Below, in pieces: positions 33,379 to 58,023 of a stretch of 64,000 nt of DNA. The DNA is taken from the NCBI GenBank assembly GCA_965205015.1, contig OZ242029.1, positions 2,656,001-2,720,000 of the forward strand. Direction: 5' to 3'. The stretch is from Candidatus Poribacteria bacterium. Its GTDB lineage: Bacteria > Poribacteria > WGA-4E > WGA-3G. Position 1 is the stretch's first letter, and each line of letters opens with the position of its first letter. The position numbers and the translations under genes were made by a program. The notes beneath the pieces were generated by a model that searched no databases, was not told the origin of the DNA, and was given only the letters and a program-made list of their open reading frames with translations.

Positions 33379-34167
33379 CTATTGCCGAGCTTTAATGCTG
33401 CCCCATGTGGTTGCAAGCTTACCAGAAGGCTCAACAGGCAGGAGTGTTCGCATTCCTTTTTCCATCAATTCCTTTATATCTTCTGCTTCCAGCACAGAAG
33501 CGAAAATTGCGACCTCATAGAGTATACCATCGAGGGTCTCTGAAGTGTTGTTGGTCCAACCACCGATGTTGACATCCGTGTCATTCCGAGGTGCCGGTTT
33601 ACCCATCCCGCCAACAGAAGCGATTTCCTCAGCATTTTCGTAGATCTTGATGGTATCCTTTGCGTCGTAAGTTGCGGTCATGTACAACCATTCATCTTTC
33701 TTCACTTGACTTTGATTCCAGGCACCTTTCCAACCGCCGTTCGCGAAGTAAGCTTCCCAACCGGTGCCGGAGCTGCTTGTCCTGAAGGCGTAATTTGCCA
33801 CTGTACCCGCCGCGGGTCTTTTGCCGAGAATATGTCCATACCCGTTCTCGGATTTGTTGACATACACCCATGAAGTGATTGACCACGCCTTTTCCAGATA
33901 CATACTGTCGGAATCTGCGATGATAACCCGATCATTTTGTCCATTTAAGCTTAGAGCGGCGGGACCCTTATTTGGTCCTTTGACCCATTTTCCGCCCTGA
34001 AGTTCACCGTGATTCTCGTTTCCAGAGATATCCTCGATTTGATCGCCTTTCCCTTCGTCGAGTAGCCAAATGCCTCTTGCGGTTTCAAAATCTATCTCTG
34101 CATAGGTTGGGACTGCGAAGGTCAAACCGATGGTGATAATCGCTAAGCAAACTATAACGGATTTCAT
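33379..34167 (-). CDS. Secreted LamG-like jellyroll protein (Lys-rich member of pair)
   Basis: Signal peptide; W.LDEG.G..I.D.SG...HG; LPVEPSGKLATTW tail. Confidence 0.85.
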   Translation of the reverse strand: MKSVIVCLAIITIGLTFAVPTYAEIDFETARGIWLLDEGKGDQIEDISGNENHGELQGGKWVKGPNKGPAALSLNGQNDRVIIADSDSMYLEKAWSITSWVYVNKSENGYGHILGKRPAAGTVANYAFRTSSSGTGWEAYFANGGWKGAWNQSQVKKDEWLYMTATYDAKDTIKIYENAEEIASVGGMGKPAPRNDTDVNIGGWTNNTSETLDGILYEVAIFASVLEAEDIKELMEKGMRTLLPVEPSGKLATTWGSIKARQ

Positions 34168-34175
34168 GTTTACCT

Positions 34176-34575
34176 GTTCTTAAAAACCTATGTTTTTCCG
34201 AAGAAATCCATAAATTTCTAAAGGGTTCCTAACCCCTGTTACGGCACCCGTCAGTGTCTAAGCCTACCTATACCCAACTGTGCCTGCCACGTTAGCAGAA
34301 GATATAGGCGGCTTGCATATCCCAAGAAACACGGGATATGGACGAACCGTCAAAGTTAGCACCGAAATGCTAACGCCTTTTTCTCGCCCCGTACTCTATT
34401 TTCCAGGCTCATCAACGGGTATTTGAACCTGTCGGGCAGCCCTACGTGGTTCTTGTAGGTTGCATTGGTTTTTGCGACTGCCAGAGGCGGTATGTGGGAA
34501 TCGAACCCACCGAGAATGCCTACATTTACCGCGAAACATAGAAAAAACAAGAAAAACAACTATGTAGGAATGACT
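34176..34575 (-). ncRNA. 400-nt structured RNA element inserted in the RBS, copy A
   Basis: Homologous to 55788-56202 with compensatory changes; absent from the homologous leader of paralog 34671-35453. Confidence 0.85.
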
Positions 34576-34670
34576 CCTAAAGGTTGAATTTACCGTTAAA
34601 GAACATTTACGTCGGTGTGTCCCTTTAGTTGTTCAGGTGACCCACCGACTGCGCCCAATTTGTTCAACGC

Positions 34671-35453
34671 TTATTGAGATTTGATGTCTGCCCATGTCGT
34701 TGCGAGTTTGCCAGAAGGTTCAACAGGAGTGACTAAGGACGGGAGTCCCTCGTCCATCAGGGTGTTTACGTCTTCTTCTGACAGCGCGACACTAAAAAGC
34801 GCGACCTCAGAAAGCATACCGTCAAGGGTCTCTGTGGTATTGTTGGTCCAACCGCCGATGTTGGTGTCAGTATCATTCCGGGGTGCCGGTCCACCAAGAC
34901 CGCCAACAGAACCGATTTCAGCTCCGTTTTCGTAGATTTTGATGGTGTCTTCTCCATCATAAGTTGCGGTCATGTACAACCATTCATCTTTCTTGACGGT
35001 TCCTTGATTCCAAGCCCCTTTCCAGCCGCCTCGCGAGTAATATGCTTCCCAGCCGGTACCATTGCCGCTTGTCCTGAAGGCGTAATTTGCCACCGTCCCA
35101 GATGCGGGTCTTTTGCCGAGAATATGTCCAAAACCGTTCTCGGTGCTATTCACGAAAACCCATGCAGTGATTGTCCACGCCTTCTCCAGATACAAACTAT
35201 CGGAGTCAGCAATGATAACCCGATCATCTTGTCCGTTCAAACTTAGGGCAGGCCCATTCGGTCCGTCGACCCATTCTCCGCCCTGAAGTTCACCGTGATT
35301 TTCGTTTCCAGACATATCGTTGATCATATTGCCTTCGCCTTCATCGAGTAACCAAATGCCTCGTGCGGTTCCAAGGTCGATCTCCGCATAGGTCTGGACT
35401 GTGAAGGTTAGACTGATGATAAGAATCGCTAAGCGAATTATAGTGGATTTCAT
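34671..35453 (-). CDS. Secreted LamG-like jellyroll protein (acidic member of pair)
   Basis: Close paralog of 33379-34167; intact AGGAGGT RBS; TPVEPSGKLATTW tail. Confidence 0.85.
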   Translation of the reverse strand: MKSTIIRLAILIISLTFTVQTYAEIDLGTARGIWLLDEGEGNMINDMSGNENHGELQGGEWVDGPNGPALSLNGQDDRVIIADSDSLYLEKAWTITAWVFVNSTENGFGHILGKRPASGTVANYAFRTSGNGTGWEAYYSRGGWKGAWNQGTVKKDEWLYMTATYDGEDTIKIYENGAEIGSVGGLGGPAPRNDTDTNIGGWTNNTTETLDGMLSEVALFSVALSEEDVNTLMDEGLPSLVTPVEPSGKLATTWADIKSQ

Positions 35454-35497
35454 TTTACCTCCTAAAGGTTGAATGTGCCGTTAAGGGATGTTTTGAA

Positions 35498-35584
35498 TGG
35501 GCAGATACAAGACCTGCCCCTACAAGTGGGCAGATACAAGACCTACCCCTACAAGTGGGCAGATACAAGACCTGCCCCTACAAG
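35498..35584. repeat. Three tandem 29-nt GTAG-type REP units
   Basis: TGGGCAGATACAAGACCTRCCCCTACAAG x3 with no spacers; related units at 10307-10333 and 58087-58112. Confidence 0.9.
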
Positions 35585-40938: not shown

Positions 40939-41889
40939 TTATAGCGGGTCTCCATCCGTCTCCAAGTTAAGCCACTCCATTTCAGCCTGGGAAAGTTCGA
41001 GTTCCATTGCGCCGAGGGAGGAGTCCATCTCTGTTAAAGTTATAGGTCCAACGATTGGAAAAACGGGGAATGGGATATTCAAGCAGTATGCGAGGGAGAC
41101 CTGAATTGGGGAATAGCCGTGTTTTGCCCCTAATTTCTTTGCGCGTGCGAGTCTTTCAAAGTTGTCGTCGTTGTAGTAGACGCGCACCATATCTCCGTTT
41201 TCGCGATTTTCCGGTGTGAACGCGCCGCTGAAGAAACCTCGTGCTTGCGAAGACCAAGGCATCAACGGGAACTGACTCTCTTTATGCCATTTGCGTGCGG
41301 CATCGTCGACGCAGATACACCCCGCCCACATCGGTTCCATCGGCACGGCGAGACTGATGTTATTGCTACAAGAGACAAATCCCGCCAGTCCGTTTTCAGC
41401 GGCATAGGCGTTGGCATCAATAATGCGCTGAGGGTGCCAATTAGAAGCAGCAGCCGCTCGAATGCGCCCTGCACCGATCTCGTCGTTCAGGTAATCAATG
41501 ATGGTTTCAACGGGAATCACGGGGTCGTCGCGATGGAGCATGTAGAGGTCGATATAATCGGTGCGAAGTCGGATGAGACTTTCATCGAGATCGCTTTTGA
41601 GTTCTTCGGGGGAGAGACGGGGACGCGGCACCCTGCCTTGTGGATGTCCGCCTTTGTCAATGAGAAAAACTTCGTCTCGGTTGCGGCGTTGGCGCATCCA
41701 GAGACCGATAAGCATTTCACTATCACCGCCTCCATAACCGTGCGCTGTGTCGAGGGTATTTCCGCCGGCTTCAAAGAAAGCGTCGAGCATTTCAGTGCTA
41801 TAATCGAATTTGACAGGTGAAAATACCATGGTACCCAGAATCAGATGCGAGATCTCTTTGGTGACTCCGGGAATTTTTATATGTTTCAT
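40939..41889 (-). CDS. Aldo/keto reductase
   Basis: DTAHGYG, SLIRLRTDYIDLYMLHRDD, WSSQARG. Confidence 0.92.
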   Translation of the reverse strand: MKHIKIPGVTKEISHLILGTMVFSPVKFDYSTEMLDAFFEAGGNTLDTAHGYGGGDSEMLIGLWMRQRRNRDEVFLIDKGGHPQGRVPRPRLSPEELKSDLDESLIRLRTDYIDLYMLHRDDPVIPVETIIDYLNDEIGAGRIRAAAASNWHPQRIIDANAYAAENGLAGFVSCSNNISLAVPMEPMWAGCICVDDAARKWHKESQFPLMPWSSQARGFFSGAFTPENRENGDMVRVYYNDDNFERLARAKKLGAKHGYSPIQVSLAYCLNIPFPVFPIVGPITLTEMDSSLGAMELELSQAEMEWLNLETDGDPL

Positions 41890-55685: not shown

Positions 55686-55715
55686 TTGACATATTTGGGT
55701 GCTTTCCTATATCAT
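55686..55715 (+). promoter_or_regulatory. Sigma-70 promoter, duplicated at 57118-57147
   Basis: TTGACA-N18-TATCAT in both copies, followed by a homologous ~70-nt leader. Confidence 0.7.
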
Positions 55716-55787
55716 ATTCCTATGCGTTAAAACGCGGGTCTCTTTTTAAGATTCGCACAGTGCGTTAATTTTGTTTTAGACATGAGG

Positions 55788-56202
55788 GGTCGTTCCTAAA
55801 TAGTTGTTTTTCTTGCTTTTTCTATGTTTCGCGGTAAATGTAGGCATTTTGAGGGGTTCAAGTCCCCTCTCCCGCATCCCAGTAGCATCGTGCGATACCC
55901 AAGCACACCCGACGAAAACCACGTCGGTTCTACTGTGAGGGGTTCATACACGAGTGAGACGAACCCTGACACTGTGAGGACACTCGGAAGTAAAATAAGG
56001 CGTTAGCATTTCGGTGTTAACTTTGTGGGTTACACCATACCTCGCGCAACCTTGAGGTATGCAAGCCGCGTATCGCTTCTGACGACGTATCAGACGACAC
56101 TGGTGATATTCAGGCTTAGAGGCTGTCGAGTCTCGTCATAAGGGGGTAGGATCCCCGTAGAAATCTGTGGGTTTAAATAGAAATACATAGATTTTTACTA
56201 AC
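55788..56202 (+). ncRNA. 415-nt structured RNA element inserted in the RBS, copy B
   Basis: Homologous to 34176-34575; absent from the homologous leader of paralog 57229-58023. Confidence 0.85.
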
Positions 56203-56212
56203 AGATATATTC

Positions 56213-57004
56213 ATGCGTTTAATGTTGTATTTATTTGCCGTTTCACTCTTAATGGTAGGCAGTGCGCTTACCACACACGCTGTGGTCCAAGACGACGGCT
56301 TAATCCTTTATTTCAGTTTCGATGACGCAAAAAACGGAACAATTATGGATGAAACCGGTGGCGGAAATGATGGTGTCGTTGATGGCGCAGAGATTGCTAC
56401 CGACGAAGTCGTCTACGGCAAGGGATCCTTGTTATGTGATGACGGTAATGACAGTGTGTCGGTTGATACTTTTAAAGAATTAGAGGAATATACAGACAAT
56501 TCCTATCTTTTCTGGCTCAATTTCACCGACGTGAATTCCGGGGCGTGGAATCAAATCATAGCAAAAAAAGCACCCGGTTCTGACCGTTCTCCGGGGATAT
56601 GGACTTGTAACCGCGCCAGTTTGCATATCCACTATCGGTTCAATCCGGGTAACCAAGGCACACTCTGTGCGGGTCCCGAGGGAGAAGATGACGAATTTGC
56701 AGTCGGGGACTGGCATCACATTGCAGGTGTCAAAGAGGGTGACCAGTTGAAGTTCTATGTTGATGGAGAAGTCGTTGTGGAGCAGAGTGTTCCGGCGAGT
56801 CACGCGCAAGGTGCGGAGAAACTCTATATCGGTAAAACGGGTTATAACGCTGCGCTCTTCTACATTGATGACCTCTATGTCTATGACAGAGCACTCAGTG
56901 CCGATGAAGTAGAAAATATCATGGAGGGGGGGCTTCTCACGCCTGTGGAACCTCAGGACAAACTCGCCACGACGTGGGGACACCTGAAAACACGCCGTGA
57001 TTAA
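56213..57004 (+). CDS. Secreted LamG-like protein (acidic member of pair)
   Basis: Signal peptide; LILYFSFD, WHHIAGV, IDDL.VYDRALS; TPVEPQDKLATTW tail. Confidence 0.88.
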   Translation: MRLMLYLFAVSLLMVGSALTTHAVVQDDGLILYFSFDDAKNGTIMDETGGGNDGVVDGAEIATDEVVYGKGSLLCDDGNDSVSVDTFKELEEYTDNSYLFWLNFTDVNSGAWNQIIAKKAPGSDRSPGIWTCNRASLHIHYRFNPGNQGTLCAGPEGEDDEFAVGDWHHIAGVKEGDQLKFYVDGEVVVEQSVPASHAQGAEKLYIGKTGYNAALFYIDDLYVYDRALSADEVENIMEGGLLTPVEPQDKLATTWGHLKTRRD

Positions 57005-57228
57005 TTTCGTTCTTCCCTGAAACAACTTGTAGGGACGGCTTCTATGTCGTCCCACATCTATTTCCCCATTTGTGTCTGCCTATTTCTCGAATACACACCC
57101 CACCGCACATATTTTCCTTGACATCTTTAAGTTTTTTCGTGTATCATATTCTCACGAGTTAAAACGCGGGTCCTTTTTAAAGACTCACACAGTATGTTAA
57201 CTTTGTTTCAGACATGAGGAGGTTACTC

Positions 57229-58023
57229 ATGCGTTCAGTTATGTATGTACTCGCCGTTGCCCTATTAGTCATAGGCAGCGCACTCTCCACAGATGCCGCA
57301 AAGGTCGAAGATAAGGGGTTAATCCTTTACTTCAGTTTCGATGAAGCAAAAGGCGGAAATCTTGAAGATGGAACCGGTGGCGGAAATAACGGTGAAATCG
57401 TTGATGGGGCGAAGATTGTCAAGGATGAAGTTGTCCATGGCAAAGGTTCAATGTTATTTGCCAAGCCGGGGGACAGTGTGCAGGTCGATTCCTTCAAAGA
57501 ATTAGAAGATTATACGGACAACTCCTATCTCTTCTGGCTCAACTTTACGGATCCAAACTCCGGTGGCTGGGATCAGATTATTGCAAAAAAAGCTCCCGGC
57601 TCTGACCGTTCACCCGGTATATGGACCTGTAACCGTGTACCTCTGTATATCCACTACCGGTTTAATCCCGGTAACGCCGGCACGCATTGTGCAGGTCCCG
57701 ATGGAGAAAACGACACATTTGATGAGAATAAGTGGTATCACATTGCAGGGGTCAAAGAGGATGCCCAGTTGATGTTCTATGTCGATGGAAAAGAGGTTGT
57801 GAAGATAGCCGTTCCGAAGGATCACGCACAAGGTGCGGAGAAACTTTACATCGGTAAAACGGGTTATAACGCTGCGAAGTTTTACATTGACGATCTCTAC
57901 GTTTACGACAGAGCCCTGAGTGCGAAAGAGGTTGTAAACGTTATGGAGGGTGGACTACTTCCTGTTGAACCTCAAGACAAGCTCGCCTCTACGTGGGGAC
58001 AACTGAAAAGAAATCGTGACTAA
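57229..58023 (+). CDS. Secreted LamG-like protein (Lys-rich member of pair)
   Basis: Close paralog of 56213-57004; intact GAGGAGG RBS; LPVEPQDKLASTW tail. Confidence 0.88.
   Translation: MRSVMYVLAVALLVIGSALSTDAAKVEDKGLILYFSFDEAKGGNLEDGTGGGNNGEIVDGAKIVKDEVVHGKGSMLFAKPGDSVQVDSFKELEDYTDNSYLFWLNFTDPNSGGWDQIIAKKAPGSDRSPGIWTCNRVPLYIHYRFNPGNAGTHCAGPDGENDTFDENKWYHIAGVKEDAQLMFYVDGKEVVKIAVPKDHAQGAEKLYIGKTGYNAAKFYIDDLYVYDRALSAKEVVNVMEGGLLPVEPQDKLASTWGQLKRNRD

Follow-up and report, generated by a model that had tools for sequence, protein, structure and literature searches.

The 64,000-nucleotide (nt) window analyzed here, that is, the whole stretch at positions 2,656,001 to 2,720,000 of contig OZ242029.1 (assembly GCA_965205015.1, Candidatus Poribacteria bacterium), carries two homologous inserts at the Shine-Dalgarno (SD) sequences of two genes for LamG proteins. 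We consider it very probable, from sequence comparison, that these inserts, elements A and B, are non-autonomous derivatives of IS607-family transposons that lack both tnpA and tnpB and are mobilized in trans. This identification draws on homology, architecture, borders, the target motif, RNA covariation and empty alleles. Locus A, on the minus strand, consists of leader, AGGAG, a 400-nt insert, 6 nt and the ATG at 34167, and locus B, on the plus strand, of leader, AGGGG, a 415-nt insert, 8 nt and the ATG at 56213. The two inserts are the only copies of the element in the window and share 70.9% identity over 426 aligned columns, and they agree at 57 of the first 61 nt. An earlier reading of this DNA, made from the sequence only, had already described homologous inserts at the SD of two LamG genes next to empty paralogs, and this description is confirmed.

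Target motif and borders

Conservation in the flanks is confined to AGGAG. At the 23 left junctions compared, the five positions are occupied by A in 23, G in 21, G in 22, A in 21 and G in 23 sites, and the right end is AACAG in 55 of 55 complete copies (five further copies, in which the match or the contig is cut, were excluded from the 55). The dinucleotide before the left end is AG in 21 of the 23 sites and GG in two, element B among them. Since AG is common to the left and right junctions, the placement of the borders is ambiguous by 2 nt; the sequence-only reading had noted this ambiguity, and the borders used here are shifted by 2 nt relative to it.

The AGGAG flank and the AG at the junctions match the published target motif and crossover of IS607 transposons. 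For instance, the transposon target motif (TAM) of IS607 TnpB is given as 5'-AGGAG in 18 and as GAGGG in 4 of 22 strains (PMC11061315). A second study states that IS607 TnpA requires a core dinucleotide common to the target and the ends, that the guide scaffold ends with the same dinucleotide, and that products with unequal left and right dinucleotides occur (10.1101/2023.11.20.567912). IS607 elements are further characterized by the absence of inverted repeats and of target duplication and by exchange over an identical dinucleotide with a 2-base-pair (bp) crossover (PMC6188088). A UUCCU near the left end was considered as an anti-SD sequence or an internal guide and set aside; in a circle junction with right ends that terminate in AGGAACAG it would form an inverted repeat around the core, and it is more likely a recombinase half-site.

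Guide-RNA scaffold and full-length relatives

The 3' half of the elements covaries as a structured RNA, with 95.6% of cells paired and 25 of 65 pairs changed on both sides. A long-range pairing connects GUUC or GUUA with GAAC or UAAC just ahead of the terminal AG. For inserts A and B by themselves, 112 pairs are predicted, 20 of them changed on both sides. A covariance model of this half (R1, 212 positions) gave 31 matches in five of five genomes and 28 in four of four Poribacteria genomes, and since in each genome 150 of ~190-350 first-look candidates were scored, the counts of 2-14 per genome are minima. Of 60 copies examined, 14 have a tnpB open reading frame (ORF) ahead of the R1 match in place of an RNA-like 5' half; the frame runs into the first hairpin, so that the match starts within the last tnpB codons and ends at the element border. 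TnpB guide RNAs (omega/reRNA) lie in just this position, as structured RNAs that overlap the tnpB 3' end and stop at the border of the transposon, and the 3' half is therefore read as the guide-RNA scaffold plus right end.

No full-length Rfam family accounts for the element. Neither the window copies nor 15 loci matched a family at gathering scores, and relaxed searches at E up to 10 returned only T-arm-like scraps for the window copies. As a separate observation, Rfam RAGATH-32 weakly matches the last 68 nt of A (34175-34242, minus strand; 11.7 bits, E 7.8) over its full model length. RAGATH-18 is a known core of IS607 reRNA, so other RAGATH motifs may also be pieces of guide RNAs.

The full-length copies carry the genes that A and B lack. 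Their TnpB matches the Pfam domains HTH_OrfB_IS605, OrfB_IS605 and Cas12f1-like_TNB, and the protein encoded upstream of tnpB has 201 amino acids (aa), with a MerR-type helix-turn-helix and a Resolvase domain (Resolvase 7e-17 and MerR 4.5e-6 for L043, the one copy whose tnpA was scanned against Pfam). A serine-recombinase frame precedes tnpB in all seven full-length copies that were fetched with more upstream sequence, intact in five and partial in two (L047 and L048). The best solved relatives of this TnpA are IS607-family TnpAs (ISC1904, 8e-28; ISC1926; IS1535), and that of the Poribacteria TnpB is the mimivirus TnpB-like protein L79 (2e-23). A weak match of TnpB over its full length was also obtained to chain 8iaz_A (384 aa, E 1.6e-5), which carries just the label 'Transposase' in its file and which we take to be the TnpB of an AGGAG-TAM IS607 transposon of the ISFba1 group. 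TnpB contains DPG, FETK and DRDLN stretches, presumably at the places of the RuvC acidic residues.

These autonomous relatives are ~2.3 kilobases (kb) long, with the 3' half (~212 nt) at the 3' end of their tnpB. Their left end measures only ~75 nt and consists of a good promoter-like hexamer pair followed directly by the tnpA ATG. Full-length and short copies agree in the first ~60-70 nt, as found by BLAST of the 5' parts of short elements, and in the right end. It was considered that the short elements might drive the host gene from a left-end promoter; this idea was dropped because a promoter scan found no internal promoter in the window copies and the promoter is clear only in full-length copies. 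Transcription of element B would instead start at a promoter-like host site (55686-55715) and read through.

Related copies have been found in Poribacteria. A conserved 23-nt pattern occurs at 11 loci in species-representative genomes, all 11 of which belong to Poribacteria, and in 2 metagenome contigs. Complete copies among the 11 loci have the AACAG end, a start codon within about a dozen bases, and AGGAG, AAGAG or AGGGG at the left, before mutually unrelated host genes. An earlier pattern, built from the conserved 5' stretch, had no match in species-representative genome contigs, its shortened version had none in metagenome contigs, and a pattern for the pseudoknot had none in viral contigs.

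Empty sites and presence/absence of the insert

The paralog beside element A has the same leader as the filled copy and passes from AGGAGG straight into spacer and ATG, and the paralog of host gene B (ATG 57229) likewise has AGGAGG and no insert, with promoter and leader alignable between filled and empty copies. Locus A was also compared with assembled contigs from four public runs; it should be noted that contigs carry no information on RNA ends, strand or level. In one contig of DNA run X4 and one of RNA-library run X17, position 34173 is joined to 34574, with exactly 400 nt skipped (2 nt ambiguity). Both joined contigs are ~10-12% diverged from the window and come from related strains with an empty site, and the insert is a presence/absence polymorphism at the DNA level. 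The sequence-only reading had called for a search for such junctions. They occur in both kinds of run, and because the same joined form is found in DNA, its presence in the X17 RNA contig gives no evidence for RNA splicing. A loose contig end in RNA-library run X19 resembles the empty allele of A. Contigs of RNA-library runs X15 and X19 cover the 3' half of A in part and the 5' half barely; at 88% likeness they possibly derive from other copies, and no inference was drawn from them.

Orthologous sites present the same picture. For example, the secD orthologs carry a full-length copy (G006), a 275-nt derivative (G005), or AGGAG directly before the same spacer and ATG (G002), and the full-length copy has the same borders as the short copies. 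No target duplication is seen at the empty sites (window paralogs, X4 and X17 contigs, G002 secD). Sites occupied in two genomes include those at nuoD (L023/L058), thioredoxin (L022/L057), a ThuA-like gene (L040/L067) and secD. Element B is ~94% identical to L001 and L004, two copies before other genes in two other Poribacteria genomes, and this identity at different genes suggests recent mobility. Judged by eye, an apparent ordinary transfer RNA (tRNA) gene lies ~100 nt upstream of the AGGAG before secD in G005 (L027; G005:C1, ~3707200).

Residency at ribosome-binding sites

Among the 55 complete copies, 47 have a start codon 4-12 nt past the right end that opens a frame of at least 80 aa, at distances of 5-11 nt with a mode of 8. 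The eight misses, by our own reading, comprise three genes of only 65-71 aa, among them TatA, two frames with an early TGA, one of which resembles an Rdx-type selenoprotein, one GTG at distance 0 and two copies without a gene start. The same criterion is satisfied by 13 of 86 AGGAG sites on both strands of the window, a background that over-counts. Against this background the binomial tail for 47 of 55 is ~1e-30, with copies at orthologous sites not being independent. Named from their N-terminal sequences, the host genes include those for EF-Ts, NuoD, thioredoxin, LexA, SecD, TatA, ferredoxin and S20.

No complete copy lies inside a reading frame. AGGAG by itself does not explain the bias toward start codons, which is probably due to the selective loss of intragenic insertions; such loss argues against efficient splicing of the elements. 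About half of the right flanks start with G, and AG plus G thus retains a stub of the SD; some right ends have AGGA four bases from the border.

Taken with the empty alleles and the AGGAG flanks, the 47 of 55 copies before start codons support the sequence-only reading in its account of a mobile, non-coding element sited at ribosome-binding sites in the sense orientation. That reading had further predicted that copies would be numerous and would almost always lie shortly before a start codon, which agrees with the same count, and that orthologs would have empty alleles, which were found at secD of G002 and in the X4 and X17 contigs. Its option of a DNA element moved in trans fits the existence of autonomous relatives with TnpA and TnpB and the absence of tnpA and tnpB from the window.

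Two further copies are described here for their own sake. The gene downstream of L028 (G002:C3, ~2708150) starts MEVRIEYCTA, followed by an in-frame TGA, and presumably resembles the start of an Rdx/SelW-type selenoprotein. The copy recorded as L003/L071/L076 (G009:C50, ~41100-41650) has a ~170-nt internal insertion of short CCAGTAAC-like repeats in the long hairpin of its guide-RNA half, a left flank without SD and a right flank without gene start.

The 5' RNA module of gene-less copies

In the gene-less copies, a module of ~150 nt that is absent from Rfam occupies the place of tnpA-tnpB. An alignment of 22 copies (A4), of which element A is a divergent member, defines eight helices with 97.0% of 892 cells paired and 21 of 42 pairs changed on both sides; these values are reached in 0 of 500 shuffles, and sliding the partner strands lowers pairing to 32-42%. 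The tRNA-like part of the module has an acceptor-like stem of 6 bp and a D-like arm of 3 bp capped by a UAGG loop. It lacks an anticodon arm, and its T arm, with a UUCAAUU-type loop, is contiguous with the 3' strand of the acceptor. The tRNA-like part is accompanied by a three-way junction, in which both hairpin loops contain AAACCA, and then an H-type pseudoknot. A second form, recognized by reading in 6 of 60 copies, is without the T arm and keeps the AACCAC loops and the pseudoknot.

A model of the module (R2) gave 28 matches in five genomes, of which 23 adjoin R1, 4 are cut by contig ends and 1 is weak and alone, and it was found next to none of the 10 tnpB-linked copies of those genomes. 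With stricter filters, R2 occurs in at least 35 of 150 sampled genomes of the phylum. ARAGORN reported no tRNA or transfer-messenger RNA (tmRNA) gene in the window, tmRNA models match the T-arm hairpin only (12.5-12.9 bits), and matches to the mascRNA-like family (RF01684) reach 20.1 bits (B) and 25.7 bits, below the gathering score of 42.5. Identification as tmRNA, hammerhead or HEARO/IscB RNA was rejected (for HEARO/IscB there was no Rfam match), as was a group II intron, the GUGYG...AY ends being absent.

The module has also outlasted the left end in some copies. In L022 (G005) and L023 (G001), before thioredoxin and nuoD, respectively, the left end is decayed or replaced, whereas the guide scaffold and, in the module, the T arm, the junction and the pseudoknot are intact; the former left end of L022 holds a promoter-like TTGGCA...TATCAT. 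From their sequences, these apparently immobile copies would now serve as long structured leaders.

Simpler tRNA-like modules were observed in spacers between small ORFs, in three minus-strand copies at L089 (G028:C25:20500-28000) and also at L093, L094 and L095. Each consists of acceptor stem, D arm and T arm, lacks an anticodon arm and continues into two hairpins; the next SD of AGGAG type, with its start codon, comes after ~50-100 nt. A neighboring ORF encodes a phage-type integrase (phrog_216, 1.2e-37). This arrangement resembles an operon of a mobile island that is punctuated by tRNA-like elements, and such modules are a possible source of the 5' module.

Features of the window

The features at both loci are collected in Table 1. 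Laminin_G_3 is matched by all four proteins (Pfam), that is, the two hosts and the two empty paralogs. Identical aligned residues number 199 of 264 within the paralog pair of locus A, 194 of 265 within that of locus B and 95 of 314 between A and B. A tandem repeat (29-nt unit, 3.0 copies, 96% matches) lies at 35498-35584, upstream of the empty LamG paralog of A.

Table 1. Elements, host genes and empty sites at loci A and B, in coordinates of the window
Feature	Coordinates	Strand	Evidence or remark
Element A, 400-nt non-autonomous IS607-type element (very probable)	34174..34573	-	borders ambiguous by 2 nt, AG at either junction
AGGAG before A: host SD core and TAM; final AG is the crossover dinucleotide	34574..34578	-	
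Left end of A, ~60 nt, common to relatives bearing tnpA-tnpB	34514..34573	-	BLAST
5' RNA module of A: tRNA-like part without anticodon arm, three-way junction (two A-rich ...AACCA loops), H-type pseudoknot	34386..34532	-	alignment A4
3' half of A: TnpB guide-RNA (omega/reRNA) scaffold and right end, terminal AACAG	34174..34385	-	R1, 221.8 bits
Host gene A: secreted LamG/Laminin_G_3 protein, start 6 nt past the element	33379..34167	-	PF13385, E 1.8e-18
Empty paralog of A: LamG ORF 35453-34671, intact AGGAGG 35463-35458, ATG 35453-35451	34671..35463	-	
Element B, 415-nt non-autonomous IS607-type element (very probable)	55790..56204	+	
AGGGG before B: target motif and SD remnant, left dinucleotide GG, not AG	55785..55789	+	
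5' RNA module of B: tRNA-like element, three-way junction, pseudoknot	55831..55990	+	
3' half of B: TnpB guide-RNA scaffold and right end, terminal AACAG	55991..56204	+	R1, 225.8 bits
Host gene B: LamG/Laminin_G_3 protein, start (ATG 56213) 8 nt past the element	56213..57004	+	PF13385, E 1.1e-18
Promoter-like host site upstream of locus B: TTGACA, 18 nt, TATCAT	55686..55715	+	consensus match only, 11/12
Empty site of the B paralog: AGGAG(G), spacer, ATG (57229)	57217..57231	+	

Proposed mechanism and closest known systems

Based on homology and published IS607 biology, we infer that a serine-recombinase TnpA from a full-length copy elsewhere would excise the element as a circle, which would then integrate through a 2-bp AG crossover at AGGAG. 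As AGGAG is also the core of the SD sequence, insertions would come to lie in the sense orientation between SD and start codon. The last 212 nt would act as guide scaffold, with the next 16-20 nt (spacer, start codon and first host codons) serving as guide. TnpB could then cut a site from which the element has been lost, and recombination would restore the copy, so that homing keeps the element in place. Our leading guess for the 5' module is that it may aid processing or stability of a guide RNA transcribed from a host promoter, with cleavage by RNase P or RNase Z at the tRNA-like part as one possibility. Some rescue of translation downstream of the insert would also have to be supposed.

PATEs, palindrome-associated and other gene-less derivatives of IS200/IS605 transposons, are short, keep their ends and a TnpB guide-RNA scaffold, and outnumber the autonomous copies; their mobility follows the single-strand chemistry of Y1 transposases. 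The short Poribacteria copies likewise retain ends and guide scaffold and are more numerous than the autonomous ones, while the transposase chemistry differs (serine versus Y1). We know of no PATE with an added tRNA-like or pseudoknot module. The module itself is similar to RNAs of the mascRNA/MALAT1 type (RF01684): an acceptor-like stem is stacked on a T arm whose loop has the canonical 7 nt, the D arm is small and bears a GG loop, and there is no anticodon arm. In contrast to mascRNA, it is bacterial and transposon-borne and has no conserved CCA-like tail, the next bases being part of a covarying helix; it may be processed by RNase P or RNase Z.

AGGAG-TAM IS607 transposons (ISFba1 group, with RAGATH-18-derived reRNA) resemble the Poribacteria elements in that they encode a serine TnpA and a TnpB, carry their guide RNA at the right end and have AGGAG, or a variant rich in G, at the left (PMC11061315). 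Their reRNA is described there as independent of the coding sequence, whereas the Poribacteria scaffold overlaps the 3' end of tnpB and has no Rfam match, RAGATH-18 included; PMC11061315 contains no mention of ribosome-binding sites or of insertion sites. CboIStron is similar in its IS607 TnpA with a core dinucleotide, its scaffold ending in that dinucleotide and the structured RNA that fills its left part, and mini elements of it without both genes have been mobilized in trans in the laboratory (10.1101/2023.11.20.567912). IStrons insert within genes and have a recognizable group I intron ahead of tnpA, whereas full-length Poribacteria copies have a left end of only ~75 nt. Unlike the IStron intron, the Poribacteria module is restricted to gene-less copies and is not group I-like, and the copies are placed before start codons.

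Alternative explanations

The sequence-only reading had offered an intron-like RNA among its possibilities. In an IStron-like version of this scenario, the 5' module would be a ribozyme that excises the short element from the mRNA and rejoins AGGAG to the spacer, thereby rebuilding the ribosome-binding site. There is a precedent in IS607-family IStrons (TnpA, TnpB, guide RNA and group I intron), which splice exactly at the borders with a 5' exon ending in the G-rich TAM (10.1101/2023.11.20.567912). The Poribacteria elements also end in G, lie in the sense orientation before essential-looking genes and have a strongly covarying, unexplained 5' module, and the joined form appears in RNA-library contig X17, with a loose end in X19. 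This scenario is nevertheless very unlikely, since the joined form is found on contigs that are 10-12% diverged from the window and also in DNA run X4. Module-free full-length copies occupy the same kind of site, and in contrast to IStrons, 0 of 55 complete copies lie within a reading frame. The helices follow the order of a junction with two hairpins and then an H-type pseudoknot, which differs from the P3-P9 order of group I introns. In addition, Rfam group I and group II models gave no match (E up to 10 for the window copies, up to 1 for the 15 loci), whereas published IStron introns match the group I model.

Alternatively, the inserts could be domesticated cis-regulatory leaders, riboswitch-like or protein-binding, that control translation of the downstream gene. 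No support was found for the riboswitch-like cassette that the sequence-only reading had envisaged, and we regard a domesticated leader as highly improbable. Orthologous sites are filled in two genomes (nuoD, thioredoxin, ThuA-like gene), the left ends of L022 and L023 have decayed with the RNA modules intact, and transcription would come from a host promoter, all of which would be consistent with domestication; retention at orthologous sites, however, is equally expected from TnpB-guided homing. The host genes are functionally unrelated, near-identical copies stand at different genes in different genomes, and presence or absence differs between strains. The least probable of the scenarios, to be considered extremely unlikely, is that the inserts are non-autonomous IS200/IS605 elements (PATEs) which a Y1 (HUH) TnpA mobilizes in single-stranded form, or IS110-type elements with a bridge RNA. 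The inserts do resemble IS605 in their strict orientation, in the TnpB-type guide RNA at their right end and in a position 3' of a short motif that is not duplicated, and AG/CT cores, which had led the sequence-only reading to IS110, do occur in the latter family. The tnpA frames upstream of tnpB are, however, all serine recombinases in the seven full-length copies (5 intact, 2 partial), with Resolvase rather than Y1_Tnp or DEDD in the one scanned. Both junctions have the same dinucleotide, in keeping with a 2-bp crossover by such a recombinase, and only AGGAG is conserved in the flanks, as against the 11-14 nt of bridge-RNA targets.

Several points weigh against a gene-less IS607 derivative that is mobilized in trans. 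A source of trans-acting TnpA and TnpB in this organism is assumed, and tblastn found neither tnpA nor tnpB within the window (best E 0.2). RAGATH-18, the Rfam family tied to TnpBs with an AGGAG TAM, has no match in the window or at the 15 loci. The window copies also show no internal promoter in the promoter scan. TnpB zinc ribbons typically have two CxxC pairs, and the C-terminal region of the Poribacteria TnpB (L043 2012-3229 and the other six full-length copies) has a single cysteine despite the match to the TNB (zinc-ribbon) domain; given the missing cysteines, nuclease competence is uncertain. Displacement of the SD by 0.4-2.3 kb before essential-looking genes (EF-Ts, nuoD, secD, tatA) should be harmful, and the explanation does not account for its being tolerated. 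Lastly, the strong conservation of the module despite left-end decay hints at a function beyond transposition.

Implications for Poribacteria

The IS607 family and the AGGAG TAM are already known; what is new is the family of guide-RNA scaffolds and the covarying module with its mimic of the tRNA elbow. The suggestion in the sequence-only reading that the element belongs to no described class is not supported: the element is very probably a gene-less IS607 derivative, and an AGGAG TAM has been published for IS607 TnpBs (PMC11061315). Its 5' module and scaffold match no Rfam family. Among open-access papers and preprints, we found none that links the AGGAG TAM of IS607 TnpB to ribosome-binding sites and none that mentions TnpB in Poribacteria.

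In its natural hosts, the consequence of the AGGAG motif is that a transposon and its guide RNA sit precisely between the SD and the start of many genes, some of them probably essential, and are kept there across species. This raises the question of how translation is maintained with the SD 0.4-2.3 kb distant. For genome annotation, the elements account for long 'orphan' structured leaders in sponge symbionts. We also entertain, as a speculative and on balance unlikely proposal, that the 5' module is a new functional RNA that enables a guide-RNA transposon to live in the ribosome-binding sites of essential genes, whether by RNase P/Z punctuation that frees the guide RNA, by shielding of the downstream mRNA or by an unrecognized self-excision. 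If this were true, dozens of Poribacteria genes would have their translation start wired to a TnpB guide RNA, and the island-borne modules of the L089 type would be the source of the 5' module, pointing to tRNA-like punctuation of bacterial operons.

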